NCBI GenBank assembly: GCA_018701105.1 | Contig: JABIWD010000062.1 | Coordinates: 1 to 63,265, forward strand | Length of the DNA: 63,265 bases | Direction of reading: 5' to 3' | DNA from: Candidatus Uhrbacteria bacterium | GTDB taxonomy: Bacteria; Patescibacteriota; Patescibacteriia; UBA9934; UBA11717 | Shown here: positions 44,120 to 63,265 of the stretch, one piece after another | Layout of the letters: each line of letters opens with the position of its first letter | How positions within the stretch are numbered: position 1 is the first letter of the stretch | Notes under the pieces: model-generated | The model's input: only the letters and a program-made list of their open reading frames with translations | Told to the model about the DNA's origin: nothing | The model's database searches: none | Position numbers and translations under genes: made by a program

Positions 44120-44209
44120 GTCATTCTGAGTGGCAACGTAAGAATCTCATCGTTCTAGAGCGCGCTCCTGGCATTATGAGATCCTCACGTCGTTCCTCCT
44201 CAGGATGAC
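44120..44209. repeat. MITE/REP-like element, copy 3 (reverse orientation of copy 1)
   Basis: GTCATTCTGAGTGGCAACGTAAGAATCTCAT (44120-44150), 25-nt spacer, ATGAGATCCTCACGTCGTTCCTCCTCAGGATGAC (44176-44209). The right arm is the exact reverse complement of 6273-6306. Confidence 0.85.
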
Positions 44210-45746
44210 AAAGAACACTGAAACTAATCTTACTATGAATATCTTTCAAGAAAACAAATATCCAGTGATACAAGGAAACGAGAAGGCTTCGACCGGTTTT
44301 TGTACCGTTTGGAATCAGGCCGATGTTGCCATAAAAGCGTCGCCAGAGCTTCTTGAGAAGGCTGCCATTGTAGGAACTCTGTATTCGCGTCAGGGAGTGA
44401 ACGTGGTTTTACGGAACCTCGCACTCAATCCGCATATACGGACCCTCGCACTCTGGGGGCACGGTCCTCTTTCAAATACTCCTTTTGGCACGAGTGGGAC
44501 CGATATCTTGAAAGCTCTCTGGAAAGACGGGGTGAACGACGACTCGACCGTGATCGGAACCTCGTTCCAATTGGAACAAGAGATCGATATTGAGGTCGTT
44601 CGGAAGATGATCACGAAAGTTGAACTTTTCGATCTGTCTGAACACGATTTGTGTACAGCCGTTTCAAAGATCGAGGCGACATCGTCTATGCCATACATGG
44701 ATTCAGTAGACTTCCCTCCTCCTGTCCCGCAAGAAATCTCTACGCTGCCATCAGAGAAGATCGGCTTCACAGTTCACGGCAACACCGTACTCGAAGCTTG
44801 GCGCAAACTCGTTTTTCACATTATGCGATACGGAACTGTTAAAGGTTCGCAGTACGGAATGGAACAAAAGGAATTATTGTCGGCACAATGGGTGATTCAC
44901 AATGAGCCATGCTTGTTCCCGCAAGACATACCCGAGGACTGGCCAGATCAACTCAAGGAAACTATCGGCGCTACGAGTGCAGCTATCGAGCAGTATCACG
45001 ATGTGTTCCTGAGTGCGAAAACAAAGGAGGGCGTGGCGTACACTTACGGCTCACGACTTCGCGACTGGAAGCTCGGCGATCATGTGGTCGACCAGGTCAA
45101 AGATGGACTCATCGCAAACCTAACATCGAGCCCAGACTCACGTCGTGCAATTGCAACTACACTGATCCCAGCGCAAGATGCATCTTCCAAGTCTCCTCCT
45201 TGCCTGATATCTGTACAGTGCATACAGAGCGAAGGTAAGCTAAATATGATAGCTTCTTTCCGTAGTCACGACATTTTCAAGGCAGCGATCCCGAATGCGT
45301 TCGGATTAATCGCCATGCACCAGGAGGTCTCGGACGCCACAGGATTCGAGCGCGGCTCACTCTGCATTCAGTCACATAGCGCGCACGTGTACGAAGGTGA
45401 CTTTGAACATGCAGAGAAGTTGATCAACTGCTCATACCTTGAACGTGATCCTGCGAAGGTATTTGATGCAATGTTCAGTGACAAGCGCGGAAGTATCGTC
45501 ATCCGAGTTGAGGATCGCGAGATCGTAGCCGAGCATCACACCGGTGACGGCGCGTTGATTGCAGAATACCGAGGAAGCTCGGCGCGTGATCTGACGTTAA
45601 AGCTCGGACATCTCAATATAATCTCACAAGTTTCCCATGCTCTCGACATTGGTATGGAGTTACAAAAAGCCGAGCATGCGATGAAGCTCGGACTTACATA
45701 CAATCAAGATAGACCGCTGCAGATTCAAATAAAAGAGGTGGTGTAG
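44205..45746 (+). CDS. thymidylate-synthase-fold protein (archaeal-type ThyA-like core) with extra N- and C-terminal domains
   Basis: The core SRRAIATTLIP...SPPCLISVQC...FRSHDIFKAAIPNAFGL...SHSAHVYE aligns by eye to ThyA motifs RR.I / PPC / (Y)QRS.D / P.N / H.Y. ATG 44205 lies inside the repeat arm, so ATG 44235 is an alternative start. Confidence 0.7.
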   Translation: MTKNTETNLTMNIFQENKYPVIQGNEKASTGFCTVWNQADVAIKASPELLEKAAIVGTLYSRQGVNVVLRNLALNPHIRTLALWGHGPLSNTPFGTSGTDILKALWKDGVNDDSTVIGTSFQLEQEIDIEVVRKMITKVELFDLSEHDLCTAVSKIEATSSMPYMDSVDFPPPVPQEISTLPSEKIGFTVHGNTVLEAWRKLVFHIMRYGTVKGSQYGMEQKELLSAQWVIHNEPCLFPQDIPEDWPDQLKETIGATSAAIEQYHDVFLSAKTKEGVAYTYGSRLRDWKLGDHVVDQVKDGLIANLTSSPDSRRAIATTLIPAQDASSKSPPCLISVQCIQSEGKLNMIASFRSHDIFKAAIPNAFGLIAMHQEVSDATGFERGSLCIQSHSAHVYEGDFEHAEKLINCSYLERDPAKVFDAMFSDKRGSIVIRVEDREIVAEHHTGDGALIAEYRGSSARDLTLKLGHLNIISQVSHALDIGMELQKAEHAMKLGLTYNQDRPLQIQIKEVV

Positions 45747-45798: not shown

Positions 45799-47853
45799 TT
45801 ACTCTGGTGAGTTGCGACTGAGGAACCGTTCGAGTTCGTCTGCTAGTTTTTTATTGTGTTCAAGCTCTGGATCGGTGTCTAGAATCTGTTCGGCTACGTC
45901 GCGTGCTTGTGATATCAGGGTGTGATCAGATAAGCTCGCGAACTGGAATTCAGGCAATCCTGACTGTCGGGTTCCAAAGCGATCTCCTGAACCTCTGAGC
46001 TTGAGGTCGATCTCGGCTAACATGAACCCACTATCGTGTTTAACCATGGCTTCGAGCCTCTCTTTTGTTGACCCGCTCATACTCGTTGGATGCAAGAAAC
46101 ACGTTGCCCTGTCTGACGATCTGCGCACTCGACCCCTCAATTGGTGCAATTGAGCGAGTCCAAACCTCTCTGCCCCCTCAATAAAGATAGTAGTAGCATT
46201 TGGAACGTTCACTCCGACCTCGATAACGGTCGTGGAGACCAATACGTCAATCTCTCCATTGCGGAATTTTGTCATTATCTCGTCCTTCTCCTTTGCCTTC
46301 ATCTTGCCATGAAGCTCCTGAATACTAAATGATCTCAGGTGATTTTTACTCAGTTTCATCTTCAGCTCTTTCACAGAGTCTGCCTCAGATCCTTCACTGA
46401 CATCAATAAACGGACAAACTACATACGCCTGAAATCCCTGTTTAAGTTTCTCGCCGATGATCCCGTAAGCTTCTTTGTCCTGAGACGGTCGCAAAAGAAC
46501 TGTCTCGATCTCGCCACGCCCCGGTGGCAGCTCGTCCAGTATCGAAATGTTCATGTCACCATACAACGCCATAGCAAGTGTGCGCGGAATCGGAGTAGCT
46601 GTCATCGACAAGAAATGTGGCACGATATCGCCGCGCCCTGCTACGAGCTTCTTACGCTGTTCAACACCAAAGCGATGTTGCTCGTCTACGATAACAAGAG
46701 CAAGTTTAGGGATCGCAAGCTCGTCTGATAGCAACGCATGAGTGCCAACCACGATTGCGATCCTGCCATCTACGAGTGCTTCGAGTATTAGCTTCCTCGT
46801 TGACGACTCACCATTAATCTCCTGATATGAGCTCGTCAAAAGCGCAATCTGAACCTCGGGTCCGAGCGTTTCCTGAAGTCCGGATGCTTGTTGCACCGCA
46901 AGTATCTCTGTTGGGGCTAGGTATGCGCTCTGAAAGCCCTGGAACGCCGTATTTCCGGCCGCTAACGCTGCAACAACCGTTTTTCCCGACCCCACGTCAC
47001 CTTCGAGCAAACGATGCATAGGAGTAGCATTTTCCATGTCCTGCATAATCGCAAAAGTAGCCTTCCTTTGCGCATCTGTCAGTGCAAATGGCAACTTCGA
47101 TATCGTCTCTTTTACAAACGGTAAATCCATCTCAATCGCATGCGCCTTGGACAGCTCAATATGCTGTCGGGCTCGGACGTGCGCGATCTGGTGAATCAAC
47201 AACTCGGCGAACTTCATCCTACGCATCGCCTTCTCCCAAGACTCCTGCTCCTCCGGAAAATGTAAAGCCGCAATCGAACTCGCAATCGAAGCAAGATCAT
47301 AATCCGCCACAACATTCTCCGGTATCCACTCCTCCATCTCATCAACCGCCTTCATCGCATTCTTAACAGCATTACGCCTCCCCTTCTGCGCCATCTTTCC
47401 TGACACCGAATAGATCGGCACGAGTCTTCCTGTGTGCTGTGTTGGCCCACTGTCCTTAATTGTCTCGAACTGCGGGTTCACGATGCTCAGACCAAACTTG
47501 TCATCGATCTTTCCTGACAGCGAAACTTTGTCCCCCACCTTCAACGTCTTTGCAATATACGGCTGATGAAACCAAACAGCAGTAATCGTCCCCGTAGCAT
47601 CTTCGATAGTGGCCTCGGTCAGAGTCATTTTCTTCCTAGGACTCCGCCGTGATCGGATACTCGTAATCGATCCTTGGACGGTCGTGGTCTCACCTGGCGA
47701 CAAATCGGCGATCCCTCGAATTGTCCGGTAATCCTCGTATCGAAATGGAAATGCCAAAAGAAGGTCGCGAACAGTATCTATTCCCAACTTTCGATAATTG
47801 ACAGACAGCTTGGGTCCAATCCCGGGCAATGCAGTTATCGGATGATTGATCAT
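45799..47853 (-). CDS. recG: ATP-dependent DNA helicase RecG
   Basis: 684 aa. Wedge/OB N-terminus, GDVGSGKT, DEQHRFG, TATPIPRT, QLRGRVGR-type motif (QLRGRVRR). Confidence 0.95.
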   Translation of the reverse strand: MINHPITALPGIGPKLSVNYRKLGIDTVRDLLLAFPFRYEDYRTIRGIADLSPGETTTVQGSITSIRSRRSPRKKMTLTEATIEDATGTITAVWFHQPYIAKTLKVGDKVSLSGKIDDKFGLSIVNPQFETIKDSGPTQHTGRLVPIYSVSGKMAQKGRRNAVKNAMKAVDEMEEWIPENVVADYDLASIASSIAALHFPEEQESWEKAMRRMKFAELLIHQIAHVRARQHIELSKAHAIEMDLPFVKETISKLPFALTDAQRKATFAIMQDMENATPMHRLLEGDVGSGKTVVAALAAGNTAFQGFQSAYLAPTEILAVQQASGLQETLGPEVQIALLTSSYQEINGESSTRKLILEALVDGRIAIVVGTHALLSDELAIPKLALVIVDEQHRFGVEQRKKLVAGRGDIVPHFLSMTATPIPRTLAMALYGDMNISILDELPPGRGEIETVLLRPSQDKEAYGIIGEKLKQGFQAYVVCPFIDVSEGSEADSVKELKMKLSKNHLRSFSIQELHGKMKAKEKDEIMTKFRNGEIDVLVSTTVIEVGVNVPNATTIFIEGAERFGLAQLHQLRGRVRRSSDRATCFLHPTSMSGSTKERLEAMVKHDSGFMLAEIDLKLRGSGDRFGTRQSGLPEFQFASLSDHTLISQARDVAEQILDTDPELEHNKKLADELERFLSRNSPE

Positions 47854-47902: not shown

Positions 47903-47948
47903 CCGGTCAGAAAACACGGCTCACAAACAAAGCCGTGGGAGGAGACAA

Positions 47949-48563
47949 ATGAAAAACCCCATGATCCCGATGCTCGCTGCCCTGCAGCTGGTGCTCGTCG
48001 CCACGGCGGTCACTTATTGCATCCCGGCTACGAGTTCCGATGACGAGGCGACGGAAGATGAGCAGGCCACCGTGACCCTGCAGATCGGCTACCGCACCGA
48101 CGTCGGCGTGGTGATCGACAAGCACGGAACGGTGTGGGACGGCCACATCGAGGTCACTCACTCGCACGACCCGAGCGTGACGCCAGTGGTGACGATCCGC
48201 ACTCCCAGCCTCGGTGGCGATCCCAAAGGGCTCTGCGAGCTCGAGATCGAGAGCACGGACGACAGCGTCGGCCCCACGGACCTCGTGCACACCACGAAGT
48301 ACGTGCCGTTCGGCGTCTGCGGAACCGACCTCTGGATGGCCCACTTCATCATCAGCGGCCGCGGTGATTGGCTCAAGATGCACCTTCACGTCGAAGGAGA
48401 AGAGGACTTCGTGAGCCAGGCCTACCTGGTCCCGGAGACTTCGTTCGCCGTCGGCGCGAACACGGCGACGATCTACAAGGCGTCCACCGGGCTCAACTCG
48501 GAAGCTGACGGCACCTTCGCGTTCCCCGCGTGCGAGCGCCTCATGGACGCAAACGATCTCTGA
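47949..48563 (+). CDS. secreted hypothetical protein (strongly GC3-rich orphan)
   Basis: GGAGGAG SD, signal peptide MKNPMIPMLAALQLVLVATAV, acidic linker SSDDEATEDEQ. Almost exclusively G/C-ending codons. The minus ORF 47907..48611 is its shadow. Confidence 0.65.
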   Translation: MKNPMIPMLAALQLVLVATAVTYCIPATSSDDEATEDEQATVTLQIGYRTDVGVVIDKHGTVWDGHIEVTHSHDPSVTPVVTIRTPSLGGDPKGLCELEIESTDDSVGPTDLVHTTKYVPFGVCGTDLWMAHFIISGRGDWLKMHLHVEGEEDFVSQAYLVPETSFAVGANTATIYKASTGLNSEADGTFAFPACERLMDANDL

Positions 48564-48574
48564 TCGTCTACCAA

Positions 48575-48632
48575 GAACCACCCCCACCAATACCGGTGCG
48601 GATACGGTCACTTGGTGGGCGGTTCTTTTTTT
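48575..48632 (+). terminator. intrinsic terminator
   Basis: Long imperfect hairpin (GAACC...CCCACCAA / TTGGTGGG...GGTTC) followed by TTTTTTT. Confidence 0.65.
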
Positions 48633-49156: not shown

Positions 49157-49678
49157 TTAGAGTTTATACAACCTTTTTATGTAGTCTGTCAAGCTCTCTT
49201 CCTTACGGTCGTCGTTCTCATAAACGAAATCTAACATCGTCTCTCGAAGCTCGATTGGGTCCAAATTTTCAGGTAGGTCTATACTTACGTACGGGTGAAT
49301 GTTTCTCGCAAAGTCTATGTACAACTTCTGCACATCTGGCGGTTCATATGCAATCCAAAAGTTCTTTATCTCATCCCATGGGTGATAATGGTTTCCAATC
49401 ACAAGCCCAGTCGTCAGAATAACTACAGGAACATCCTCGGGATCATGAAAGTGCTGCATGATCATAAATGTGCCAAACAAGATCAGCAACACCGCGAAAA
49501 TGTAGTTACTCGTCAAGATCGCGTAGAGTATCAATGCAATCCCAAAGACCAAGAAGGTTACATACCAAGCTGTACCCCTCTCATGTTGGTGAAATTCCTT
49601 CATTGTCCAGTACAACAAAAGGTCACCGTACTTTGGGTCGATCTGCTCCTCGATTGATTGTTCTTGTTTCTCATCCAT
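49157..49678 (-). CDS. hypothetical membrane protein
   Basis: Start taken at MDEKQEQ (M28 of the track ORF). Two central TM helices then a soluble C-terminal domain. Confidence 0.6.
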   Translation of the reverse strand: MDEKQEQSIEEQIDPKYGDLLLYWTMKEFHQHERGTAWYVTFLVFGIALILYAILTSNYIFAVLLILFGTFMIMQHFHDPEDVPVVILTTGLVIGNHYHPWDEIKNFWIAYEPPDVQKLYIDFARNIHPYVSIDLPENLDPIELRETMLDFVYENDDRKEESLTDYIKRLYKL

Positions 49679-49759
49679 CTGCCAACAGTATACCAAACTG
49701 CGGCAATAGAAAGAACACTTGATTTTCTGGCCGTAATATAGTACTGTTGCCCTGCTCAT

Positions 49760-52452: not shown

Positions 52453-52467
52453 AAAAAAAATCGAGCC

Positions 52468-53037
52468 CTAGGAGGGCCCATTGTTGAAGTTCTCTTCGAA
52501 TCTGCTCAGTACGACGTCTGCGGGCAGGTTCCCGTCTAGCACAACGTCGCTGAATCCCAGAAGGTCTGGAATCTCTCTCTCGGTCTCCAGATTGTTCTGG
52601 GCATCGAACGCCTCGCGCGAGAAGTCTGGACCGTCTTCCGGCCGTCCTCTTTCAACCCAGCGATCAAAGCGGAGATCGCTTTGCGCACGAAGGAACACGA
52701 CCTTGAGGTCAATATCCGAATGTGCGCTCATGCGTTCCGCCTGAGCAATACGCCGCCAGCCGTCCAGCACGTACACCTCTGCTGGGTTTGCACGCATGTG
52801 CTCCAGCATCAGGTCGACAAGGAACGTCTCTCCGTGCTCTGCAGCCATGTGCCCATAGAACGCAGACATGTGCTTACGTTCCGTGGACAGACCCAAGTCC
52901 TCCATCCTCTCTCGTAGCAGGTCAGAAATGAGCAATGTACGCGCGCCAGAGTGACGCGCGCAATACGCTTCTGCCAATGTTGACTTGCCAGCACAGATGT
53001 AGCCAGCAAGTGCGATCACTCGTTGTTCTTTACACAC
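52468..53037 (-). CDS. P-loop NTPase/kinase-like protein (GC-enriched)
   Basis: GTG start with GGAGG upstream. Walker A AGYICAGKST. Size and layout of small nucleotide/nucleoside kinases. Confidence 0.65.
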   Translation of the reverse strand: MCKEQRVIALAGYICAGKSTLAEAYCARHSGARTLLISDLLRERMEDLGLSTERKHMSAFYGHMAAEHGETFLVDLMLEHMRANPAEVYVLDGWRRIAQAERMSAHSDIDLKVVFLRAQSDLRFDRWVERGRPEDGPDFSREAFDAQNNLETEREIPDLLGFSDVVLDGNLPADVVLSRFEENFNNGPS

Positions 53038-53094: not shown

Positions 53095-53796
53095 TCAATT
53101 CCCTCTGGCAAAAGTAACGCCCCAAACAACCTCAACACCGGACCTCTTAAGCTCGCGTGCCACCGCCGACATGGTCTTCCCTGTCGTATAGACGTCATCG
53201 ACGAGAATGACGTTCGGCGGAACGATAATATTTGTGTTCACCTCAAACACCCCATCAAAAGATCGCTCAGCTCTTTTTTTATCACTCAAGCTAGCCTGAG
53301 GCTTCTGAAAATGCCGAGCCCGCTTTACAAGATTCAGTTCAAGATCGATCCCAAGCTCCATCGCTATTATACGAGCTAGCACAATGCTCTGGTCAAACCC
53401 ACGCGCTCGAGCTCGCATCGGATGTAGCGGCACGGGCACGATCACCCAGTTCTTACTCGGAACTTGCTGCGTCGCATTGAGCCACTGAGACAAGATCGAG
53501 CTTATGTGGGGCTCGGCCTCGCGTACAAAGCGATACTTCCATAGTCTGACTAGTTTTTTTGAAAGAATATTCGCATACCACGTCGCACTAACAACGCCAT
53601 CGAGCGAATGGTCGTAATGCTCCGAACATCGCGCGCCATAAGTCGTGATCGCGTCGCACCCGGGACAGTGCTGAGGATACCTGCAAACAAAAACAGCGCG
53701 ACATTCTACACACAAGAGGAATCCGTCGCGCTGGCATTTTATGCACTGCTGGGGGAAAATTGCATTGCGTAGTCTATGTATCCACTTTAATTCCAT
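53095..53796 (-). CDS. comF: ComF family protein (phosphoribosyltransferase-type)
   Basis: N-terminal Cys clusters (C.KC...C.EC, CPGC), C-terminal PRT motif VILVDDVYTTGKT. Overlaps the upstream gene by 10 nt. Confidence 0.85.
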   Translation of the reverse strand: MELKWIHRLRNAIFPQQCIKCQRDGFLLCVECRAVFVCRYPQHCPGCDAITTYGARCSEHYDHSLDGVVSATWYANILSKKLVRLWKYRFVREAEPHISSILSQWLNATQQVPSKNWVIVPVPLHPMRARARGFDQSIVLARIIAMELGIDLELNLVKRARHFQKPQASLSDKKRAERSFDGVFEVNTNIIVPPNVILVDDVYTTGKTMSAVARELKRSGVEVVWGVTFARGN

Positions 53797-54350
53797 TGAA
53801 AATTAGCTACTAACCACAATTCTCCACGCTTTTCCAGAGAAATCGTTGCTGTTTTGTACTCTATAGTAGTATTGGTTCGCGTACCCAGCTCAATCTCGTT
53901 CTGCACGGCTACTGCGTATACAACGCTTCCAGACTCCTCGCTCCCTGAGCTCAATGCAGCCGACAAAGCTCTTGTGCTCACACCGCGAAACGACTCTGCA
54001 TCAACATCTGTAACGCCACTTTGAAGAGTCGCGTGATACTCAGGCGTACTCAATTCCTTTACCTCGTTCACGTTCTCAAAAGGAACATCTGTCGAATATG
54101 TTCCAAATCTCTCAGCAAAGTTCATGGCTACAACTCGAGCCGATGCCGCGTCTGCGGTAACCGGAATAACTTCTGAAGCCGACGGTGTGGTATCTCGAAT
54201 CACAGCCTCTGGAGCCACGGGCTCTGGCACGGGCTCTGGGACTACTTCGCCTCCTCTAAACAAGAAGAACCATAGCAAGAATAACATCACCAATATCAAC
54301 ACTATAAGTGCCGCTACTATTGACCGCCTTTGTCCTGGGGTAATTTGCAT
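53787..54350 (-). CDS. bitopic membrane protein (VirB8-like role is only a guess)
   Basis: 187 aa. N-terminal TM, Pro/Glu linker, about 120-aa extracytoplasmic domain ending ...RGELWLVANFQWN (looks NTF2-like). Starts 1 nt after the VirB4 gene. Confidence 0.6.
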   Translation of the reverse strand: MQITPGQRRSIVAALIVLILVMLFLLWFFLFRGGEVVPEPVPEPVAPEAVIRDTTPSASEVIPVTADAASARVVAMNFAERFGTYSTDVPFENVNEVKELSTPEYHATLQSGVTDVDAESFRGVSTRALSAALSSGSEESGSVVYAVAVQNEIELGTRTNTTIEYKTATISLEKRGELWLVANFQWN

Positions 54351-54351
54351 A

Positions 54352-56418
54352 TTAATTGTCTAGTGATTGTTCTAATGCTGCCCCCTCTTCTGCTATTCCT
54401 GACTCGATTTTAGACTTCTCTGCATCCTTATCAACTACTCCCGCCTCCGTAGCCTCTTTATCTTCTAATTCTCCCTCGAACTCACGCCGCTCACCCTCCA
54501 TCTCAAGCAACTGCTCTGGGTTCGTGGTCACAATCTTGTCTTCCAAATAACTCGCCACCACCTGAATAGCGGCGTGCTTGTTTCCTGCAAAGAAGATTCC
54601 CTGTCCAATACCCGCCTCAAGCAAGAGATATTTCTCTGCATCTGTGAGGTTAAACGTCTTCTGAACCAAGTCAACAGCAGCAGGCGACTGCTTCATGAGC
54701 AACTGCATGCTCGAGTTCGTCACGATCGCCTGTCCATACTGGTTCCTAAGGAAGTCATTCACATCCTGTGTAATCGTCTGAACTCCCAAGAAGTACTTAC
54801 GTCCACGCTTCACAATCGCAAAGATAAATCGCGCCGAATCCTCGTGTTGCATCAACCACCACGCCTCGTCGACTACTAGCAGCCGCTTCTTTCGAGTTGA
54901 TCGAACAACGTTCCAAATGTAGGTAATAATGTTATAAATTGCCATCGGTCGCAGCTCATCCTCCAAATCTCGCACAGAGAAGATCACCAACTGGTTGCTG
55001 GTCTCCACCGTCGTAGGCGAGCTAAAGAGCCCTGCGAATGTTCCTTCCGTGTATTTCTTGATACGCGCAACTAGACTGTCTGCACCGGTCATTCCCTCTA
55101 GAACCTCCTGCAAGTCTTGCATCGTAGGTGGCTCAACCTTAGCGAGGTCACTTTGCGGTGTAATGTCCTTTTTTGCATATGACTCCAAAATCGCACGATC
55201 CAGCACAGCGTCGTCTTCAGGCGAGAATCCAAGAGCCCCCGTTGAACCCTGCGGAGTTCCCATCATGATTCGCATCAAACCTTTGATTGTGATAACAGCA
55301 GATCGGATTATATCCTCAACGCTCGCGTCCGATGTAGTGGCACGCGGAAGATCGAATGGGTTGATCTTACTATCAGACGCCAGTGAGACGTTCACGTATG
55401 TTCCACCAACAGCATCTGAAAGCGCCTTGTACTCCATTTCTGGGTCGATAACGATGACGTCAACGCCAAGCATCATCGATCGGATGATCTCAAGCTTCAC
55501 AGCGTAACTTTTTCCAGCTCCAGATGTAGCAAACACAACTCCGTTCGCGTTTTGCAAACTGAACCTATCAAACAATATCAAACTGTTGTTGTGTCGATTT
55601 ATTCCGTACAAGATTCCGTTATCACTCGTGAGCTCTGACGAGATGAATGGGAAACTCGACGCAATCGGACTTGTACTCATGTTGAATGTGATCTGCAACT
55701 CGTCGTTTCCAAGTGGTAACGTTGAGTTGAATCCCTGCTCGGACTGATACAGTCCACGCTTTGTCATGATCAACTTCGCTCCAAACGAAGAATCAATATC
55801 ATCACAAACACGATCAAGCTCTTCCTTATCCTTTGCGTACACCGTTACATAGAAAGCAAACTGGAAGAAATGCTCAATACCTTGCGTGAGCTGGTCTCGC
55901 AGCCCCTCAATGTCTCGCAACGCAGTCTCGCGTAGTGGGTCTCGTGGTTTTCCTTTCTGACGATCCAGTGAAAGCTGAGCTTCCACCTCTCCAGCCTTTT
56001 TCTTGAGTTGCTTCAAAATGATAGCAGCCTCAATTGGATAGAAGTACATTGAAATATCTATCGTCCAGTTGAAGTTGATGATACCTGCGGCCCAACCGAC
56101 TCCAACATAACGAGGGTATCCAACAATGAACAACGTGCGCGCATATTGATCTCCGAGCTTAAGAAAACTCGATGTAACTTCAAAAGACGCCGGAGCAATC
56201 AGGTCGCGAATTGAAACAATTCCACGCTGATAAATCCGCTCTTCTTCAAGAAGGGAGCGAACACTCTCCTGCTCTTTCTTGTCAGCAATCTGCTCCTTCT
56301 GCTTCGCTGAGAGCTTCTTAGGAGCCTGCGGCTTTCCAGGTGTAGCAGGCTTTTTGCTCTTGCCCTTCTTTCCTTTGCCGTCTTGTTCGTATTGCTCAAT
56401 TTGTTTCTCAAAAGCCAT
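54352..56418 (-). CDS. VirB4/TrbE-type type IV secretion ATPase
   Basis: 688 aa. Walker A FATSGAGKSY, Walker B RLLVVDEAWWLM, ITQD motif. Lys-rich N-terminal tail. Confidence 0.9.
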   Translation of the reverse strand: MAFEKQIEQYEQDGKGKKGKSKKPATPGKPQAPKKLSAKQKEQIADKKEQESVRSLLEEERIYQRGIVSIRDLIAPASFEVTSSFLKLGDQYARTLFIVGYPRYVGVGWAAGIINFNWTIDISMYFYPIEAAIILKQLKKKAGEVEAQLSLDRQKGKPRDPLRETALRDIEGLRDQLTQGIEHFFQFAFYVTVYAKDKEELDRVCDDIDSSFGAKLIMTKRGLYQSEQGFNSTLPLGNDELQITFNMSTSPIASSFPFISSELTSDNGILYGINRHNNSLILFDRFSLQNANGVVFATSGAGKSYAVKLEIIRSMMLGVDVIVIDPEMEYKALSDAVGGTYVNVSLASDSKINPFDLPRATTSDASVEDIIRSAVITIKGLMRIMMGTPQGSTGALGFSPEDDAVLDRAILESYAKKDITPQSDLAKVEPPTMQDLQEVLEGMTGADSLVARIKKYTEGTFAGLFSSPTTVETSNQLVIFSVRDLEDELRPMAIYNIITYIWNVVRSTRKKRLLVVDEAWWLMQHEDSARFIFAIVKRGRKYFLGVQTITQDVNDFLRNQYGQAIVTNSSMQLLMKQSPAAVDLVQKTFNLTDAEKYLLLEAGIGQGIFFAGNKHAAIQVVASYLEDKIVTTNPEQLLEMEGERREFEGELEDKEATEAGVVDKDAEKSKIESGIAEEGAALEQSLDN

Positions 56419-57103
56419 ATGATGTATCCAAATCTAACTCTCCCGCATTTTTTAAAGGCTGTGCCTCGGAAACTATCGGGTTGTAAGCGTTGTAATAAAG
56501 CTCAATCAAGCCCTGAGTGTCCAAGCGAGCTCCAGAGAGGCCCATGCTATTCAAGCTACCAAGAGCCTGCGCCATGCGCTGTTCTAGTTCCTGCTGCCGT
56601 ATCTTGAACTGTTTTTCCGAAAGTTTAATACGCGAGCCGGGAGTCAGTACTGCGCCAAGTCGTGTAAAGAAACCTTTCTTGTCGCTCGCCAAGGGATCGA
56701 AAGGCACCACGATGAAGAAGCGCTTACTCATAATCTCACTGTCAGACACAAGGTCTTTTATGAAATCGATGTAATCCGTCATCTGATTCCGCAGCAACTC
56801 GTTCTCCAATTCCGAGCTTGCCTGCCTCATCCTTCCAATGTAATCCTCGATTCGCATTCTTCGTGAATGAATCACAACCTGCAACGGGTAATCGAGACCA
56901 TTCAAAAACTGCATGTACGCCTGAATCACCGCCTGCTGCTCGTCGTTAGACTTCAGTGCAAAGTTGATACTCGAAACAATCGCGACTCCACGTACTGATC
57001 CATCTTTCAGAATCACCATGTCGTCACGAATTTCTGAGATATCCAAATACTTCTGCGTCGCAGGTCGTTTGGCTTGAACTAGTTTTTGTTTTTTCTTTGC
57101 CAT
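56408..57103 (-). CDS. VirB4 N-terminal-domain-like protein (separate ORF)
   Basis: 231 aa from ATG 57103. YLDISEIRDDMVILKDGSVRGVAIVSSINFALKSNDEQQAVI resembles the extreme N-terminal region of Gram-positive-type VirB4 ATPases. 11-nt ATGGCTTTTGA overlap with the ATPase gene. Confidence 0.6.
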   Translation of the reverse strand: MAKKKQKLVQAKRPATQKYLDISEIRDDMVILKDGSVRGVAIVSSINFALKSNDEQQAVIQAYMQFLNGLDYPLQVVIHSRRMRIEDYIGRMRQASSELENELLRNQMTDYIDFIKDLVSDSEIMSKRFFIVVPFDPLASDKKGFFTRLGAVLTPGSRIKLSEKQFKIRQQELEQRMAQALGSLNSMGLSGARLDTQGLIELYYNAYNPIVSEAQPLKNAGELDLDTSYGF

Positions 57104-57104
57104 A

Positions 57105-57545
57105 TTATTTTTCCGCCTCATCGGGCATATACACTCCACCGGTGTTCACGACTAGAGATAGGTCTCTTAAGTGCGAACCGCTCAGTGGTGGCTTTCTATA
57201 CGGAGGAGGTGGAGGAGGTGGTTCTTTTCTGTTCATCATTGCTTTGATCTCTGCATCTGATCGATTCTTACTCCAAACCCTGATAGAAGGGCGGCGTAAT
57301 GTCTGCAGATAGTTCAACATTATGTAGTGAAATGGCTGTCCATGAATTCTTACAAAAGCAATCACTAAGGAAATTGCAGCGGTTGGGATAGCGAAGACCA
57401 GGAACAGAGAAAAATCGAAAAGTCGATTCTGAATAACGATTATTAGCCCCGCAACCATGATAGTCACAAACTGTCGCACCGTGATTGGTCCGATAATCTT
57501 ACTCTCCACGTCTAGAAATTGTGGGATAACAAATTGATCTGCCAT
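57105..57545 (-). CDS. PrgI-family (VirB3-like) membrane protein
   Basis: IPQFLDVESKIIGPITVRQF followed by two TM helices. Poly-Pro in the C-terminal tail. Confidence 0.7.
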   Translation of the reverse strand: MADQFVIPQFLDVESKIIGPITVRQFVTIMVAGLIIVIQNRLFDFSLFLVFAIPTAAISLVIAFVRIHGQPFHYIMLNYLQTLRRPSIRVWSKNRSDAEIKAMMNRKEPPPPPPPYRKPPLSGSHLRDLSLVVNTGGVYMPDEAEK

Positions 57546-57562
57546 AAACCTATTTTATCACA

Positions 57563-59476
57563 CTAGTAGCGCAGGGTACTGTTAATTCTACGCACAACGT
57601 CAATCTCCTCTTTAGTCATTCCCTTAGGATTTCTCTTTGCATCCTTAAGCACCGATTCTATTGCGATACCTTCTTGCAAAGCCATCCCCATGAGCTTCTG
57701 GTACATCATGACCAATGGGCTCTCTCTCCACGCCTCAATAGCGCGGATCCGCAATCCAGGATCCCCTTCTCCTAACATGTTAATGTCCTCCATCAAGTTC
57801 TCTTGAACAACGCTAATGTCTCCCGGCAATCGTCGGAAGTCGTCGATGTTCATTCTTCGAAACTCTTCAATCGGTCCAACAAGTCTCTTCTTGTACCTAA
57901 CATCTGTAACTGGCTTTTTTCCTGATGGAGTAACTCGTGGCGCCATCGATGGAGTGGACAATACAGTTTTCGCCGTAGACTTCTTTTGTGAGACAGACTT
58001 TGATGCACTGGCACCTAACGCCGGACTCGAGCTCGACTTTGGATCTTTCGATGAAGGTGCACCGTACTTCTCCTGTTTCTTCTTAACCATCTCCTCCTTG
58101 CCCGCCTTGTGTTTTGCAACGGCATCACCATGCTCTCCCGATATTGATGTCTCAACCTCTTCAACAACACGATTCACCGCATGCTCAGACAGAGCAAGTC
58201 CACCTTTCTCAATAGGTTGTTCGAGAGCCTTCTTGAAATCCGCAGCCGACCTTACACCGGAATATCGCGCGCCCAAAACCACTCGAAACCTCTTATTGAG
58301 CTCGGACGATGGAAACGATAGTGATAGCTTTCGCTGCACCTCGTCAATTTTCTTATTCTCTAAACTCTCAGGAGCCTTTTGCCCTGTTTTCTTAAGATCC
58401 TGCATTGTAGACGCAGCGGCAGCCTCATTGGCGACATTCGGGAACAGCTCTTTCTTCACTGCAACGGGCGCCCTTTTCTTTGGCTTCACAACGACCTCGC
58501 TCTTTCGTCTCAATGATTTCTTTGCCTTAGGCTGAGCTGGCGTAGGCTTAACATCAGTTTCCACCTCAACGTGACTTGTTACCATTGGACCAACGTCCTT
58601 CTTTGTTGCTGGAGGTTCCGCATCGACGATCATCGGTGGTGGCGGAGCGAGCTCACGCTTTTCACCTTTTGACGCCGGGTGCATTTTGTCCAACTTATCA
58701 TCGTACCGCCTAACAACCTTCACAACCTTCGGCTCTTGTCTTTTTGGCAAAGACGGCGGCACTAGCGGCTTCTTTGCCGGTACCGGCTTTACGGCAGGCT
58801 TCACCGGCGGTGTCTTTTGTACAGGCACCGATGGCGGCGCAACTGCAGCCTTTGGCTTCACAGGAGCTTCAACAACTCGAGCTACTGGAGCTGGAGGTGC
58901 TACTTTAGGCTCTGGCGTTGGAGCGGGTGGTGGTTTGGGTGCAGGCTCAGCTTTCACCGGCGCCTCAACCTCAATCTCCTCGTCAATCTTTTCCACGACC
59001 TCGGGCTCGTTAACCTTTTCCCTCTCCCGAGACGCCGCCTGCGCTCTCTTAACCTTAACCTCGGCAACAGCAATATCGTTCGCCTTTCTAATATCCTTCA
59101 CAGTTCCACCCGTTGCATCGATTCTCTTTACAGTCGAAACAGATACGTCTCCACCTAAATTCGCATATGTACGGAAAGCCGATGACATCATGTACGAGTC
59201 GATTGGCAGGAACCTCGTACGCAAAAGATCCAGTGACACTTTGCGTGCCAACGGAGCTTCTAGGCCAAGTTTAACTCGAATCAAATTCTCGACTGAATCT
59301 AACGCAGCGTAACCAAACAATAATTCTTGTTGAATGTCATCGAGTCCGTCCACCACTGTAGTGGAAAGACCGTACGCCTCACCAATCTGATCCAGATCTT
59401 TAAGCCCGGAGTCCAAGAAGAACTCACGAATCTCATCGGGCAATATACTGTAAATATATATATTTTCCTCCGCCAT
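57563..59476 (-). CDS. hypothetical protein with long Pro/Lys/Val-rich central region
   Basis: 637 aa, no TM noticed. Sits between the polytopic membrane gene and the prgI-like gene. Confidence 0.7.
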   Translation of the reverse strand: MAEENIYIYSILPDEIREFFLDSGLKDLDQIGEAYGLSTTVVDGLDDIQQELLFGYAALDSVENLIRVKLGLEAPLARKVSLDLLRTRFLPIDSYMMSSAFRTYANLGGDVSVSTVKRIDATGGTVKDIRKANDIAVAEVKVKRAQAASREREKVNEPEVVEKIDEEIEVEAPVKAEPAPKPPPAPTPEPKVAPPAPVARVVEAPVKPKAAVAPPSVPVQKTPPVKPAVKPVPAKKPLVPPSLPKRQEPKVVKVVRRYDDKLDKMHPASKGEKRELAPPPPMIVDAEPPATKKDVGPMVTSHVEVETDVKPTPAQPKAKKSLRRKSEVVVKPKKRAPVAVKKELFPNVANEAAAASTMQDLKKTGQKAPESLENKKIDEVQRKLSLSFPSSELNKRFRVVLGARYSGVRSAADFKKALEQPIEKGGLALSEHAVNRVVEEVETSISGEHGDAVAKHKAGKEEMVKKKQEKYGAPSSKDPKSSSSPALGASASKSVSQKKSTAKTVLSTPSMAPRVTPSGKKPVTDVRYKKRLVGPIEEFRRMNIDDFRRLPGDISVVQENLMEDINMLGEGDPGLRIRAIEAWRESPLVMMYQKLMGMALQEGIAIESVLKDAKRNPKGMTKEEIDVVRRINSTLRY

Positions 59477-59505
59477 ATCAACAATACAATCCGGAATTAA
59501 ATTTT

Positions 59506-62256
59506 TTAGACTTCAGCCTGAGCTACGACTCGTCGCTTCATGTGACGGATAGATCCATCAAGCTGCTTGATCATAGCCTTTGATCCTCCTGAACGCTTCA
59601 ACTCTGCCCTGTAGTTCTTAAGAAGCTTCTCCGATGCCTTGATAGTAGATTTCCATGTCTCCTCATTTGGAGATCCCTTCGCCTGGTTCATGGATGCAAG
59701 CATCGCATCAAGAGACTTAGGTGTAAGACTTTCCGCGGCAACAGCCGCCATGTCTCCGCTCATATTCTCCATCTCAGCACTAAGATTAACAATCATGGTT
59801 GGGTTCTTAGCAAAATCTCCTGCGAAAACTCGTGCATCCTTTGGCGATGCAAACTCGTTACGCATAGCCGTCCCAGAACTGTCGTAGTTGTATGAGGAGT
59901 CTGGATTTCTTGTCATCACCGTTCTAGCAGCCTTATTGATACTCGTATCAGTTCCTCCGGCCGCTGCATCTGCACTATGAATAGCACTCTCCACTTCTCT
60001 CAGCATCTGGTTTGCTCTTGCCTTCTCTTCCTTATTACCGGAAGTAGCCGTCTGCTCCAACGCCTGTATCATCTGAGCGCTACCCTTCTCTTTCAATGCC
60101 GAAACGATAGCCCGCCGTACCTCGTTAACGGTGTCACCAGCAGCACCAGCACCGGCGCCACCAGACATGCTCTTACGAATAAGCTCCGGCATGTCAATAT
60201 CTCCCATGGGCATTCCTCCTCCAATAATGGAGCCCATAGTTCCGGAAATATTGGCGTTAACTAGACCGTGAATAGCAGCATCACTATTCGCACCATCTTT
60301 ATTCGCTGCCAGATTCATGTCCAGCCCACGTTGACCGTCCACCGCATCCTGATAACGATCCTGTTCTTGCTTGTCTCGCCGCTTCACATCCGGTGTAGCA
60401 TTGATATGCTTTTGAGCCGCATCAATAAAGTCTTTCTTAGCTCCCTTACGCGCAGAATTCCTGGTTTCCTTATCAGTATCAAACATCTCATCATACACCC
60501 CGGAGTCACGAGCAGCCTGCCTGAAGTGCGAGGAACCCCATGCGCGCTTATCAATGCCCGCTCGCTCTTGCTGCGTCATGCCTTCAAGAGCCTTTTGCAT
60601 ACTCGCCGCATCCGTATTCTCCCACTGAGGGTTACTTGCCAACATCTTCTTTATCTTATCCTGCCCCTTATCATCATCTGTATCCTTCTGATGTTTCTGA
60701 ACATCCGCAAGCATCTTCATGGCCCTAGCCTTAGTGCTTGGGTTTTCCATCATGCCAGCAAACGCGCCCTCATCTCCAACTGTTGCAGACTGAAGAGCCA
60801 TAGCTTGAGCACGCTGCTCTTCCGTTGCCTTTGGTCCTGAATATTTTTCTATAAAGTCTAACTTCTGCTGATCACCAAGCTTGCTACCAAACCCAGCATA
60901 TTTCTTCGCGAGATCGCCCTGGATTGAGTTCTCCTTGCGCTCTTCCTCAGCAACCTTAGCAAGCTGGCCACGTCCAAACATTCCGCGGACTCCGCCAGCT
61001 GCGATATTCTGTTCCGCTCTCTTTTTCTGCTTCTCTCGTGCAGCCAAACGCCTCTCCTGCGTTCTTCCACGGTAAAGGCTCGAAACTCCTCCGGCCACTG
61101 CAGCACCAGCTGCTCGCCCTTTCTGAACTCCCTTACGCCCAACTGCCATCGCTCCCGCTCCTGCCAACGCAATAGGTGCTCCTGCAATCTTCTTTCCAGC
61201 AGACAATCCAGCGCCAGCAATGCTCTGCGCCGCTCCACCCAAGCTTCCCGCAGTAGACACAGCCATCTCCAAACCAGCCAACAACAGTGCGATACCGATA
61301 ATGAATCCTGTGAAGTTGTCATTTGTGACAATAGAGTTGTTGATCACAGCTCCTGAAGGAGGTGGGTTTCTGTTTGTATCGAAACCTTGAGTCATTCCAC
61401 TCACGGACGCCAACGCCAACCAAAGGAAGAAAGTCAGAATAGGGCCAATCATGATAGCGGCGGTCAACTTCCCCCACCACTGACTATACATATCACCCGC
61501 TTTAGACAAAATCCCCTGCGCGGCTCCTGCCAAGAAAGCGGCAGGCGACAAGATGATAAGCACCCATAGAACAACGATTCTATATACGAGCACCCCGGCC
61601 AGTGTAGCTATCACAACCAAAACTATGGCCGACATTACCGCGGCCATCATCGCTGAACCCAAGTTGGACGCTCCATCAATCGTAAGACTTCCGTCCACTT
61701 GAGTCTGAAGATCGCTCAACTTAAGCAATTGCAAAAAATTTCCAACACCAACCTGCTGCAGAGCGTTCACGAAGCCAATCATTACCACCTGCCCGATATC
61801 AATGAGCAGTCCCGTAATAAGACGAGAAAAATTGATAGCAATAGCTGCAACAACTAGTCGTGGAATTTGCTGCGTCCAGTTGATTCTTTGAATGCCGAAC
61901 ATTGTCCCGAAAGCAATCACGAGCATCAATACAATGAACCCTGTGTTCACAAGGTCGCGGACAATTGACCATCCATTCAGCACAACCGGGTGGCCAATAA
62001 AGTCAGAGTACTGAACAATAGGAAGTAAGATCAGCTCAAGGAGAACCAGAATCATAGTCCCCAAGAAGTTCGCTACCACGAGTATAACTCTCGCGAGAAG
62101 ATTCAGGATAACGTTTCCAGAAGCCGCTAGTCCATCCGCCAAGCCTTCAGTCACAAAGTTCGCGCTAACAGGATCCGCAGCGAATACCAAAATGAGCACG
62201 GACAACCCTGCTATTGCAACTTTGAAGAAACGCTTGTAGTTTTGCCAAGCTTTCAT
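59506..62256 (-). CDS. large polytopic membrane protein (VirB6/TrbL-like candidate) with about 550-aa hydrophilic C-terminal region
   Basis: The N-terminal about 370 aa hold at least 8 hydrophobic helices. The rest is Ala/Gly/Lys/Asp/Met-rich. ATG 62256 is preferred over the track TTG at 62268. First gene of the operon. Confidence 0.75.
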   Translation of the reverse strand: MKAWQNYKRFFKVAIAGLSVLILVFAADPVSANFVTEGLADGLAASGNVILNLLARVILVVANFLGTMILVLLELILLPIVQYSDFIGHPVVLNGWSIVRDLVNTGFIVLMLVIAFGTMFGIQRINWTQQIPRLVVAAIAINFSRLITGLLIDIGQVVMIGFVNALQQVGVGNFLQLLKLSDLQTQVDGSLTIDGASNLGSAMMAAVMSAIVLVVIATLAGVLVYRIVVLWVLIILSPAAFLAGAAQGILSKAGDMYSQWWGKLTAAIMIGPILTFFLWLALASVSGMTQGFDTNRNPPPSGAVINNSIVTNDNFTGFIIGIALLLAGLEMAVSTAGSLGGAAQSIAGAGLSAGKKIAGAPIALAGAGAMAVGRKGVQKGRAAGAAVAGGVSSLYRGRTQERRLAAREKQKKRAEQNIAAGGVRGMFGRGQLAKVAEEERKENSIQGDLAKKYAGFGSKLGDQQKLDFIEKYSGPKATEEQRAQAMALQSATVGDEGAFAGMMENPSTKARAMKMLADVQKHQKDTDDDKGQDKIKKMLASNPQWENTDAASMQKALEGMTQQERAGIDKRAWGSSHFRQAARDSGVYDEMFDTDKETRNSARKGAKKDFIDAAQKHINATPDVKRRDKQEQDRYQDAVDGQRGLDMNLAANKDGANSDAAIHGLVNANISGTMGSIIGGGMPMGDIDMPELIRKSMSGGAGAGAAGDTVNEVRRAIVSALKEKGSAQMIQALEQTATSGNKEEKARANQMLREVESAIHSADAAAGGTDTSINKAARTVMTRNPDSSYNYDSSGTAMRNEFASPKDARVFAGDFAKNPTMIVNLSAEMENMSGDMAAVAAESLTPKSLDAMLASMNQAKGSPNEETWKSTIKASEKLLKNYRAELKRSGGSKAMIKQLDGSIRHMKRRVVAQAEV

Positions 62257-62272
62257 GAGATATTTCAAAGGT

Positions 62273-62281
62273 ATTATACCA
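62273..62281 (-). promoter_or_regulatory. extended -10 element for the T4SS-like operon
   Basis: The minus strand reads TGGTATAAT, ending 16 nt upstream of ATG 62256. Confidence 0.4.
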
Positions 62282-62326
62282 TGGTATAAAAGATGCGATA
62301 TTAGTAGATGTGGATTGAAATAGAAA

Positions 62327-62364
62327 CATTTTCAATTTTGCAATTCGGCAATTTTCAATTGATT
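62327..62364. repeat. left 38-bp inverted repeat flanking the four-helix-bundle gene
   Basis: CATTTTCAATTTTGCAATTCGGCAATTTTCAATTGATT. It is the perfect reverse complement of 62804-62841. Confidence 0.9.
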
Positions 62365-62379
62365 ATTCGATTGGTTAAT

Positions 62380-62769
62380 TCATCGATTATCAATTTGACG
62401 AGGCGCTCTGCGCTTGGCCTTTTTGTTCCTCATGGTTTGTATTACTTTGCCAAATATCCTGGATAACTCGAGCGCTTCCTGTATAAGCTCCACCTGAATC
62501 TGCGCATTATCAACCTCCGCCACAATACACTTCAACCAGTATCTAGACTCCTTCGCTTCCTTTCTGCATATATTTATTCTGTAAAGAAAATCCTTTCCGC
62601 TAAACGATTCATTGGCCTCAATATAGTTCGCGCCAACCGATCCCGACGATCTGACCAACTGCTTAATATCTTCTTGATAAATCGAATGTCTCGGAATCAA
62701 CTTAACAAACTCTCTCACCTTCCGACTAAATGCCAAAGCCCTCTCCTCAAGCCCCTCTTGTTTTGTCAT
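62380..62769 (-). CDS. four-helix-bundle protein (23S rRNA intervening-sequence protein family)
   Basis: SSGSVGANYIEA, KDFLYRINICRKEAKESRYWL hallmark motifs. Start taken at ATG 62769, because the track TTG start at 62805 lies inside the inverted repeat. Confidence 0.85.
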   Translation of the reverse strand: MTKQEGLEERALAFSRKVREFVKLIPRHSIYQEDIKQLVRSSGSVGANYIEANESFSGKDFLYRINICRKEAKESRYWLKCIVAEVDNAQIQVELIQEALELSRIFGKVIQTMRNKKAKRRAPRQIDNR

Positions 62770-62803
62770 AGTTCTCGTTAATTGATCAATTGGTAAATTT
62801 CCC

Positions 62804-62841
62804 AATCAATTGAAAATTGCCGAATTGCAAAATTGAAAATG
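62804..62841. repeat. right 38-bp inverted repeat flanking the four-helix-bundle gene
   Basis: AATCAATTGAAAATTGCCGAATTGCAAAATTGAAAATG. Perfect partner of 62327-62364. Confidence 0.9.
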
Positions 62842-62890
62842 TGAATAAAGCTATGCGACACCCTGGAGCTTCCAGGATGTCGCATATCGT

Positions 62891-63265
62891 CTAGGGTATC
62901 GTCAGCCTCACGTCACACCCGCCTCCCCAGTCCTGCACGGTTGGCGCTCTCTGGATTCCGTTGATCCAGAACGAGCCGTAGACGTGCGAGGTGTCCGAGC
63001 CTGTGTGGGCGCAGATCCACCAGGGCGAGCCGGGGGTGTTGTTGGCTTCGTATTCGCCGTTCACGATGATCGACGTTCCTGAGCCTCCGGCGATTGTTCC
63101 GCAGAGCTGCGTGAACGATCCGCTGGAAGACGCAACGGTTTCCCAGCTGCCCTCTTGCACCCAGAGCTCGCCGTTGCGAGTACCGTTCAGGCCCTGCGTC
63201 GTCCAGCAGAGCTCGGCGAGGCCGTTCCCCACCGGATCATCATCATCGTCGTCGTCATCATCACC
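62891..63265 (-). CDS. GC-rich hypothetical protein, N-terminus beyond window edge (probably secreted)
   Basis: The frame is open from the window edge: GDDDDDDDDDPVGNGLAELCWTT...CGT...WWICAH...GGGCDVRLTIP-stop. It has a poly-Asp linker followed by a small Cys-containing domain. Confidence 0.55.
   Translation of the reverse strand, partial: GDDDDDDDDDPVGNGLAELCWTTQGLNGTRNGELWVQEGSWETVASSSGSFTQLCGTIAGGSGTSIIVNGEYEANNTPGSPWWICAHTGSDTSHVYGSFWINGIQRAPTVQDWGGGCDVRLTIP

Follow-up and report, generated by a model that had tools for sequence, protein, structure and literature searches.

What does a type IV secretion system (T4SS) do for a bacterium when its operon closes with the transformation gene comF and when neither a relaxase nor a coupling protein accompanies it? 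The question is raised by a run of genes in Candidatus Uhrbacteria bacterium DNA, a stretch of 63,265 nucleotides (nt) from GenBank assembly GCA_018701105.1 (contig JABIWD010000062.1, positions 1 to 63,265) that was analysed as a whole and is referred to here as the window. Uhrbacteria are presumably part of GTDB class ABY1. The first-pass annotation of this DNA had proposed an import or contact machine, and the follow-up leads to an answer in two parts. It can be said with great confidence that the locus is a vertically inherited chromosomal T4SS of class ABY1, a member of the monoderm, MPF_FATA-derived system of the Patescibacteria clade. That this T4SS is coupled to DNA import is a more tentative proposal, which appears nearly as credible as its denial.

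Between 53095 and 62268, the open reading frame (ORF) listing has seven genes in a row on the minus strand, labelled g1 to g7 in their order of transcription. Their spacings, from g1 to g7, are 29, 17, 1, -11, 1 and -10 nt, exactly as had been read at first, and their predicted products are as follows:

59506 to 62256, minus strand: g1, 916 amino acids (aa), extended VirB6/TrbL-like candidate (hydropathy profile; conserved N-terminal domain)
57563 to 59476, minus strand: g2, 637 aa, soluble orphan protein, with no transmembrane (TM) segment or signal peptide in the hydropathy profile
57105 to 57545, minus strand: g3, 146 aa, PrgI/VirB3-like membrane protein (Pfam PF12666, E = 4e-8, 34.1 bits against a cutoff of 27)
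56408 to 57103, minus strand: g4, 231 aa, TrsD/TraC-like free-standing VirB4 N-terminal domain (NCBIfam TrsD, E = 6.5e-6)
54352 to 56418, minus strand: g5, 688 aa, VirB4 ATPase of the MPF_FATA/CD1110 type (NF045971, E = 1.4e-102, 344.4 bits against a cutoff of 325)
53787 to 54350, minus strand: g6, 187 aa, bitopic PrgL/VirB8-like protein (N-terminal TM segment at residues 5-38, NTF2-like ectodomain)
53095 to 53796, minus strand: g7, 233 aa, ComF/ComFC (zinc ribbon and phosphoribosyltransferase domain; first 10 nt shared with g6)

The conservation of this arrangement was followed through VirB4. A degenerate-pattern scan, with one genome per species, found 578 relatives, and the best 80 of these 578 were analysed; they come from Uhrbacteria, Magasanikbacteria, Falkowbacteria, or unclassified (often mislabelled) Patescibacteria metagenome-assembled genomes (MAGs). 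Queries with all seven proteins of the window recovered the complete order g1>g2>g3>g4>g5>g6>g7 on one strand in 50 of the 80 loci, and the remaining loci keep the same order, which in nearly all of them is shortened only by contig ends or by divergent g6 or g2. Three further contigs, for which precomputed Pfam tables were at hand, have the same arrangement. The same gene order across 80 genomes means that this is not a chance arrangement. Many of the relatives' MAGs (L007, L009-L011 and others, including the closed 1.0-Mb chromosome OZ246408.1) are titled 'uncultured Gammaproteobacteria bacterium', which is an evident mislabel.

As judged from the predicted products, the locus encodes a minimal Gram-positive-type (monoderm) translocon with VirB6-like, VirB3, split VirB4 and VirB8-like components. 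The Walker A (GAGKS, G300-S304) and Walker B (DE, D517/E518) motifs of g5 are invariant in the relatives, across which the protein is 66-98% identical, with 98% and 91% identity to Candidatus Uhrbacteria/Patescibacteria MAG proteins. A phmmer query with PrgJ of plasmid pCF10 reaches g5 at about 1e-40, the MPF_FATA class being a profile-based assignment. The archaeal Ced import system was also considered and was rejected, as the CedB model gives 46.9 bits against a cutoff of 700, and in the P-loop region only. The preceding gene, g4, matches VirB4/TrsD models in the first ~170-230 positions only, with E values of 1e-7 to 6e-6 that lie under the curated cutoffs; it has no match among PDB sequences, and the precomputed assignment for the identical protein on a public contig is PF26593, TraC-like. 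Because g4 is a separate ORF in 79 of 80 relatives and its spacing from VirB4 varies, the split is not a frameshift artefact. The g3 protein has TM segments in its hydropathy profile, and its gene is present in 74 of the 80 loci. Pfam and NCBIfam matches thus support the PrgI/VirB3, VirB4-N-domain and VirB4 identities that had been proposed from the letters of the sequence.

For g6, which had been a guess at VirB8, the window protein itself has no family match; it is 100% identical to HOI83_04695, a 'hypothetical protein' of Candidatus Uhrbacteria encoded on a contig of 929,237 bp that has the gene order of the window. The family profile, built from 58 homologues, aligns with the VirB8-domain region of pCF10 PrgL at an hhalign probability of 92.3% (E = 5.4e-7), and when the g6 hidden Markov model (HMM) was run against all pCF10 ORFs, PrgL alone was matched (E = 5e-9). 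Among the homologues, 4 of 58 match Pfam VirB8 and 3 of 58 an NTF2 family. An AlphaFold2 (AF2) model of g6 (predicted local distance difference test score, pLDDT, 63) retrieved NTF2-fold structures only in Foldseek, including PrgL 7aed, at weak E values of 0.009-0.03; the alignments behind the AF2 models are shallow, the homologue searches having given 5 proteins for g6 and 8 for g2. The guess has therefore held up, and the predicted g6 product is a PrgL/VirB8-like protein.

The last gene carries the functional question. The g7 protein scores best with the ComF and GntX families (TIGR00201, E = 1.7e-21; GntX, E = 1.6e-19) and contains the Pfam domains Pribosyltran and DZR_2. Its CxxC..CxxC (C18/C21/C29/C32) and DDxxT(T)G (D200/D201/T204) motifs are invariant across 50 homologues. 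Searches against the PDB gave only matches of the adenine phosphoribosyltransferase (APRT) type and did not reach Helicobacter pylori ComFC by sequence. The ComF identity given at first can be kept, at scores under the curated cutoffs: by its predicted domains, g7 is a divergent ComF member, as is usual for Patescibacteria proteins.

comF was detected in 75 loci, and the five lacking it end within a few hundred bases past VirB4 or g6. Since these five all stop too early, comF follows the VirB8-like gene in 75 of the 75 informative loci, so the linkage first noticed in the window is shared by its relatives. The spacing between g6 and comF has a median of -10 nt across relatives, most of them overlapping; ORF starts were taken as the longest possible, and the overlaps are perhaps somewhat overestimated. 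By comparison, ddl is common to 1 of 80 loci and the gene next after comF to 2 of 80, so that conservation of the comF link is far stricter than that of ordinary synteny. A promoter/terminator scan detected neither a promoter-like site before comF nor a terminator-like site between g6 and comF, in agreement with the earlier view of comF as a member of the operon. The 10-nt overlap, the absence of a promoter-like site and the adjacency in all informative relatives indicate that comF is operonic with the T4SS genes and apparently translationally coupled to them.

Three further features delimit the transcript:

62273 to 62281, minus strand: extended -10 box TGGTATAAT, read from the sequence, 16 nt before the g1 ATG at 62256
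52468 to 53037, minus strand: AAA_18/AAA_33 kinase-like gene (Pfam), 189 aa, 57 nt past comF and preceded by GGAGG
52462 to 52480, minus strand: strong terminator-like hairpin with a T-run, the first such hairpin downstream of the operon genes

The g1 reading frame spans 59506-62256 from an ATG, or extends to 62268; the ATG at 62256 is the likeliest start and is also the call on an identical public contig, and counted from it the protein has 916 aa rather than the 917 given before. The TGGTATAAT box was found again at 62281-62273, as annotated, and a simple promoter scan gave no -35 partner for it. A Shine-Dalgarno sequence is absent from the region of the g1 start (62254-62281), and together with the distance of 16 nt between box and ATG this suggests that g1 would be translated from a ~9-nt or nearly leaderless 5' end. 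At the other end, the scan detected no terminator between comF and the kinase-like gene, and the first strong hairpin lies at 52480-52462, so that the transcription unit in the genome of the window probably comprises eight genes, with the kinase gene as the last. This gene follows comF in only 2 of 80 related loci and is therefore lineage-specific.

The two largest accessory parts of the operon, g1 and g2, had both been described as not explained by known T4SS components. For g1 this needs revision. Its hydropathy profile shows a signal-like N-terminus and places ~7-9 TM segments within residues 1 to ~345; conservation is confined to this N-terminal domain, while the hydrophilic C-terminal region of ~570 aa is hypervariable. 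The segment just after the last TM is rich in Lys and Arg, which by the positive-inside rule suggests that the hydrophilic tail is cytoplasmic. Five of 54 homologues match Pfam TrbL/VirB6 (PF04610; best E = 1e-5), and the window protein itself is unmatched; no similarity was found to PrgH and Tn916 Orf15 with hhalign, nor to PDB sequences in a profile search. The protein thus weakly fits the 'extended VirB6' proteins with large hydrophilic domains, which are a recognised type (PMC12857230).

The g2 protein, on the other hand, is the sole part of the operon that is truly unexplained, as had been stated. A variable linker rich in Pro and Lys joins its N-terminal domain to a helical domain at the C-terminus (~531-637), which is conserved; the AF2 model of the last ~107 residues is a seven-helix domain with a pLDDT of ~90, for which Foldseek returned no fold match in the PDB (best E = 3.8). 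Pfam and NCBIfam gave nothing for the window protein or for 64 relatives (54 homologues and 10 distant members), and its HMM did not match any pCF10 or Tn916 ORF. A relationship to the SRP54 M-domain was set aside, since a PDB profile E value of 0.07 was judged to be chance; so was the idea that the linker is a conserved DNA-binding or wall-spanning module, because its length, composition and charge vary freely among homologues. The family defined by the g2 domain is large, with 2,351 clusters at 50% identity and E <= 1e-3 (2,175 at E <= 1e-10). Among 150 members listed, the domain is C-terminal in the full-length ones (~300-840 aa) and shorter entries look fragmentary, and wherever a source names them, the name is 'hypothetical protein'. 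The gene was found between g1 and PrgI in 72 of 80 loci and is a fixed member of the operon. Its distance from g1 is 29 nt in the window, whereas 1-3.5 kb separate the VirB6-like gene from g2 in the Magasanikbacteria-like loci L021, L027, L030, L036, L054-L059 and L064-L066, which suggests an extra operon gene in that lineage; g2 is shorter in these loci, at ~330-450 aa.

A second T4SS-associated operon lies on the other side of comF, together with recG:

39480 to 40118, plus strand: dsbA-like gene (Pfam), the first of this operon
40115 to 41467, plus strand: fusion of T4SS_pilin (PF18895) and a C39 peptidase (Pfam)
41464 to 42813, plus strand: second T4SS_pilin protein, ~450 aa (Pfam)
42831 to 44108, plus strand: radA (Pfam), the last gene of the pilin operon
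45799 to 47853, minus strand: recG (Pfam RecG_wedge, DEAD, Helicase_C), 5.2 kb downstream of comF

The spacings from dsbA through the two pilin genes to radA are -4, -4 and 17 nt, and the block is convergent with recG. The presence of radA and recG near the T4SS, claimed at first sight, is thereby supported by Pfam. The pilin fusions (40115-42813) exist as described, but they had been placed 11-13 kb 'upstream' and are downstream in the operon's sense of transcription; the VirB2-like pilins are thus encoded ~10 kb from the T4SS operon. VirB2-like pilin domains bearing enzyme-like extensions of ~300 aa are unusual. A pilin-radA block with one or more pilin genes, convergent with recG, occurs in at least 11 related loci, preceded by dsbA (5 loci) and a PD40-repeat gene where the flank reaches that far; in 20 related loci, recG lies on the same strand at a distance of up to 10 kb. 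As the comF-ended and the radA-ended operon are both conserved, two T4SS-related operons each close with a transformation/recombination gene.

From these observations a mechanism can be proposed in which VirB4 would power the assembly of a channel, and possibly of a VirB2-like pilus, at contact with a host cell or with DNA. The T4SS of ABY1 would be coexpressed with, and would probably feed, DNA-handling proteins that include ComFC; membrane-associated ComFC would receive the incoming single-stranded DNA (ssDNA) on the cytoplasmic side, and RadA and RecG would process it for recombination or nucleotide salvage. RadA reportedly has a role in transformation, according to work on Streptococcus pneumoniae. 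The part given to ComFC is modelled on that of H. pylori, a membrane-associated protein that binds ssDNA and connects transport with recombination by means of a Zn-finger and a phosphoribosyltransferase (PRT) domain (PMC9005727). Both of these are needed for ComFC function, in a species that takes up DNA through the T4SS ComB (PMC9005727, PMC12857230), and g7 conserves both, as Zn-finger and PRT motifs. A bolder version is that the T4SS, ComFC and RadA form a single import pathway from the host, a 'reverse conjugation' independent or upstream of ComEC, in which g2 and the VirB6-like tail would replace the coupling protein and dock ComFC and the substrate; this version must be called distinctly unlikely.

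A T4SS may of course be a conjugation apparatus, and the cluster could belong to, or be left over from, an integrative and conjugative element (ICE) or a plasmid, with the relaxase, the type IV coupling protein (T4CP) and oriT located beyond the window. The VirB4 is indeed of the conjugative MPF_FATA lineage, in many Patescibacteria T4CP homologues are reported far from virB4 (PMC12102498), and tRNA genes, which are common ICE integration sites, are located 3-4 kb from the operon (an Rfam scan gave three tRNAs only). Yet Pfam scans of 37 window ORFs, including most of the large ones, detected no T4CP, relaxase or integrase, and none occurs within ±10 kb in the four loci with Pfam tables. Furthermore, phmmer queries with pCF10 PcfC and PcfG, the Tn916 FtsK-like T4CP and MobT found nothing in the window or the 80 loci, while the positive control, PrgJ, found VirB4 in 81 of 81. 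The lack of a relaxase and coupling protein in the window, reported at the outset, is thus supported and extended to the flanks, and that of VirB9/10 is borne out as well, with no VirB7/9/10 among the window ORFs scanned with Pfam and NCBIfam. Relaxases are present in only 103 of 3,035 Patescibacteria genomes (PMC12102498). The G+C content across the operon (0.46-0.53) is the same as in the rest of the window, and the neighbours are housekeeping genes: ddl, tRNAs, recG, thyA-like, radA, clpB-like, pheST, dnaE, thrS, gatB and gyrB. The same chromosomal context and gene order recur in 80 species-level genomes. On composition, context and conservation, an ICE or an island acquired by horizontal gene transfer was rejected, and a conjugative element is hardly credible; the conservation of VirB4, the uniform G+C and the housekeeping neighbours argue instead for vertical inheritance under strong constraint, and we infer that the machine is not a conjugation apparatus.

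The import reading has to face several points that weigh against it. It is drawn from gene neighbourhood only, and we know of no ABY1 organism in culture. The ~0.93-Mb genome may hold a T4CP, comEC or dprA outside this region, the VirB6 assignment of g1 is weak, g2 has no assigned role, and g7 stays under the curated cutoffs (TIGR00201, 77.1 bits against 233.55; GntX, 70.3 against 304). Linkage of comF to the T4SS is restricted to class ABY1 according to PMC12102498, and it could be a lineage-specific regulatory convenience. In Southlakia (Saccharimonadia), moreover, the T4SS and VirB2-like pilins are essential, comEC, comF and dprA are not fitness genes (PMC10633639), and transformation requires comEC (PMC10633639; restated in PMC12857230), results that count against a simple equation of T4SS with competence. 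The same results favour a host-interaction machine of the kind proposed for Saccharibacteria, for pilus attachment and/or export of effector proteins to the host bacterium, with comF and radA merely coregulated or kept in frozen synteny and with ComF acting separately alongside ComEC and type IV pili. The enzyme domains of the pilin genes (C39 peptidase) suggest a surface or effector function in line with such a role, and the variable C-terminal region of g1 and the linker of g2 evolve fast, as expected of host-facing or substrate-recruiting parts. This explanation is a serious competitor, but it is rather unlikely on balance: comF is adjacent in every informative locus, mostly with overlapping frames, while the flanking synteny decays, two T4SS-related operons each end in a transformation/recombination gene, and neither effector candidates nor a T4CP were found nearby. 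The ComF-like protein might, alternatively, be mainly a PRT-type salvage enzyme acting on bases or nucleotides extracted from the host with the help of the T4SS. The invariant DDxxTTG motif, which binds phosphoribosyl pyrophosphate, the APRTs as closest solved sequences, the scores under the ComF cutoff and the kinase-like gene after comF would all suit this possibility. To our knowledge, however, catalytic activity has been shown for no ComFC; the best family matches are ComF and GntX, and the kinase gene is confined to two loci. Patescibacteria lack de novo nucleotide synthesis (PMC10633639), which also speaks for salvage, but the invariant CxxC..CxxC zinc ribbon is a hallmark of ComFC and not of salvage PRTases (PMC9005727), which leaves salvage with little chance. 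What stands of the early import-machine reading is the type of T4SS, the operonic comF and the absence of a relaxase; import itself is a proposal from gene neighbourhood.

The region upstream of g1 contains the following features:

62891 to 63265, minus strand: 3' end of a Peptidase_M23 gene, whose frame is open to the window end, where it is cut
62852 to 62886, minus strand: terminator-like 16-bp hairpin after the M23 gene (terminator scan)
62326 to 62842, minus strand: inserted cassette with a 23S_rRNA_IVP gene (PF05635, Avd-like four-helix bundle; Pfam E = 6e-11) at 62380-62805

The identical public contig has a 342-aa PF01551 protein at the M23 position, and of the 47 loci with enough sequence, 23 have an M23 gene immediately before g1 in the same orientation; these 23 form a Uhrbacteria-like subset. 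This peptidase is a plausible candidate for the wall hydrolase, a counterpart of VirB1/PrgK, which could open the cell wall. M23 proteins (window 62891-63265; L003:3160-4380) have an acidic poly-Asp linker and a conserved Cys-containing C-terminal domain of unknown fold, and their length among relatives ranges from 342 to ~860 aa. The IVP cassette, located between the M23 gene and g1, is flanked by 64-nt inverted repeats that are 83% complementary. The same intergenic spot is empty in close relatives such as L003, where the gap is 15 nt, and it holds an IS200-type Y1 transposase in another lineage; the cassette looks like a small mobile or intervening-sequence-like (IVS-like) element in an insertion hot spot. 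A diversity-generating retroelement around the Avd-like gene was considered and dropped, since no template/variable-type repeat was found and no reverse transcriptase is visible.

Elsewhere in the window, a 513-aa protein with a partial thymidylate-synthase domain and PterinBD-DUF4346 is encoded between radA and recG (44205-45746, plus strand). Pfam gave no match for the ORFs 15482-17854 (plus, 790 aa), 20235-21404 (minus, 389 aa), 37173-38132 (plus, 319 aa), 47907-48611 (minus, 234 aa) and 49157-49759 (minus, 200 aa); in 24 related loci, a homologue of this last ORF lies just upstream of recG.

Patescibacteria have a near-universal T4SS, which proved essential in the single species examined for it. 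Its arrangement in ABY1 gives the clearest genomic hint that the system may be tied to DNA acquisition, and the coupling of comFC to the T4SS and of radA to the pilins bears on the feeding and gene exchange of ultra-small, nucleotide-auxotrophic epibionts. For structural or interaction studies, the fixed and unannotated g2 family is the most useful lead.

Among known systems, the gene order VirB6-like, VirB3-like, (TrsD), VirB4, VirB8-like is that of pCF10 (PrgH-PrgI-PrgJ-PrgK-PrgL) and pGO1/pIP501 (TrsC-TrsD-TrsE), with homology to PrgI and PrgL, a split VirB4 N-domain as in TrsD and a wall hydrolase gene in the cluster. Unlike pCF10, the window locus is without T4CP (PcfC), relaxase (PcfG) and adhesins, and its VirB6-like protein is three times longer than PrgH and unrelated to it in sequence. 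It also differs from this plasmid type in that the hydrolase is an M23 peptidase and not of the lysozyme/CHAP kind, in the additional g2 and comF genes, and in the presence of VirB2-like pilins. The H. pylori ComB system resembles it as a T4SS without T4CP or relaxase that is functionally combined with ComFC (PMC9005727; PMC12857230), DNA uptake being a proposed role in the case of the window. ComB, however, is a diderm system with VirB7/9/10 that moves double-stranded DNA across the outer membrane only, and its comFC is outside the comB operons; the window organism is monoderm by lineage, so that the likeness is functional and hypothetical.

The T4SS of Southlakia epibionticum (Wang et al. 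2023, PMC10633639) likewise belongs to the Patescibacteria clade, has pilins, and shows no relaxase or recognisable T4CP in its cluster. It differs in that it was not reported to be linked to comF and that no VirB8 structural homologue was detected there, whereas ABY1 has a clear PrgL-like gene. Finally, in a survey of 3,035 Patescibacteria genomes, Quiñonero-Coronel et al. (2025) found the VirB4 clade to be monophyletic and nested in MPF_FATA, with TrsD, PrgI/VirB3, VirB6 and VirB2-like pilins in the neighbourhood of virB4, VirB8 homologues confined almost entirely to class ABY1, a T4SS that lacks a relaxase, and comF, recG and radA in the T4SS loci of ABY1; DNA import from hosts was already suggested there (PMC12102498). 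The window locus agrees with that ABY1 T4SS in its MPF_FATA VirB4, in TrsD, PrgI, VirB6 and VirB8-like genes beside virB4, in its chromosomal position without a relaxase, in comF, recG and radA within the locus and in VirB2-like pilins nearby, and nothing essential differs. The locus is thus real but not new, contrary to the novelty implied at first, as both the arrangement and the import idea were published in 2025 (PMC12102498). What is added here is detail rather than a new concept: the collinearity of seven genes, the comF linkage in all 75 informative loci, the pilin-radA operon, a firm PrgL/VirB8 assignment, the M23 gene that precedes g1 in the Uhrbacteria subset, next to an insertion hot spot, and the g2 orphan family as a fixed member of the system.

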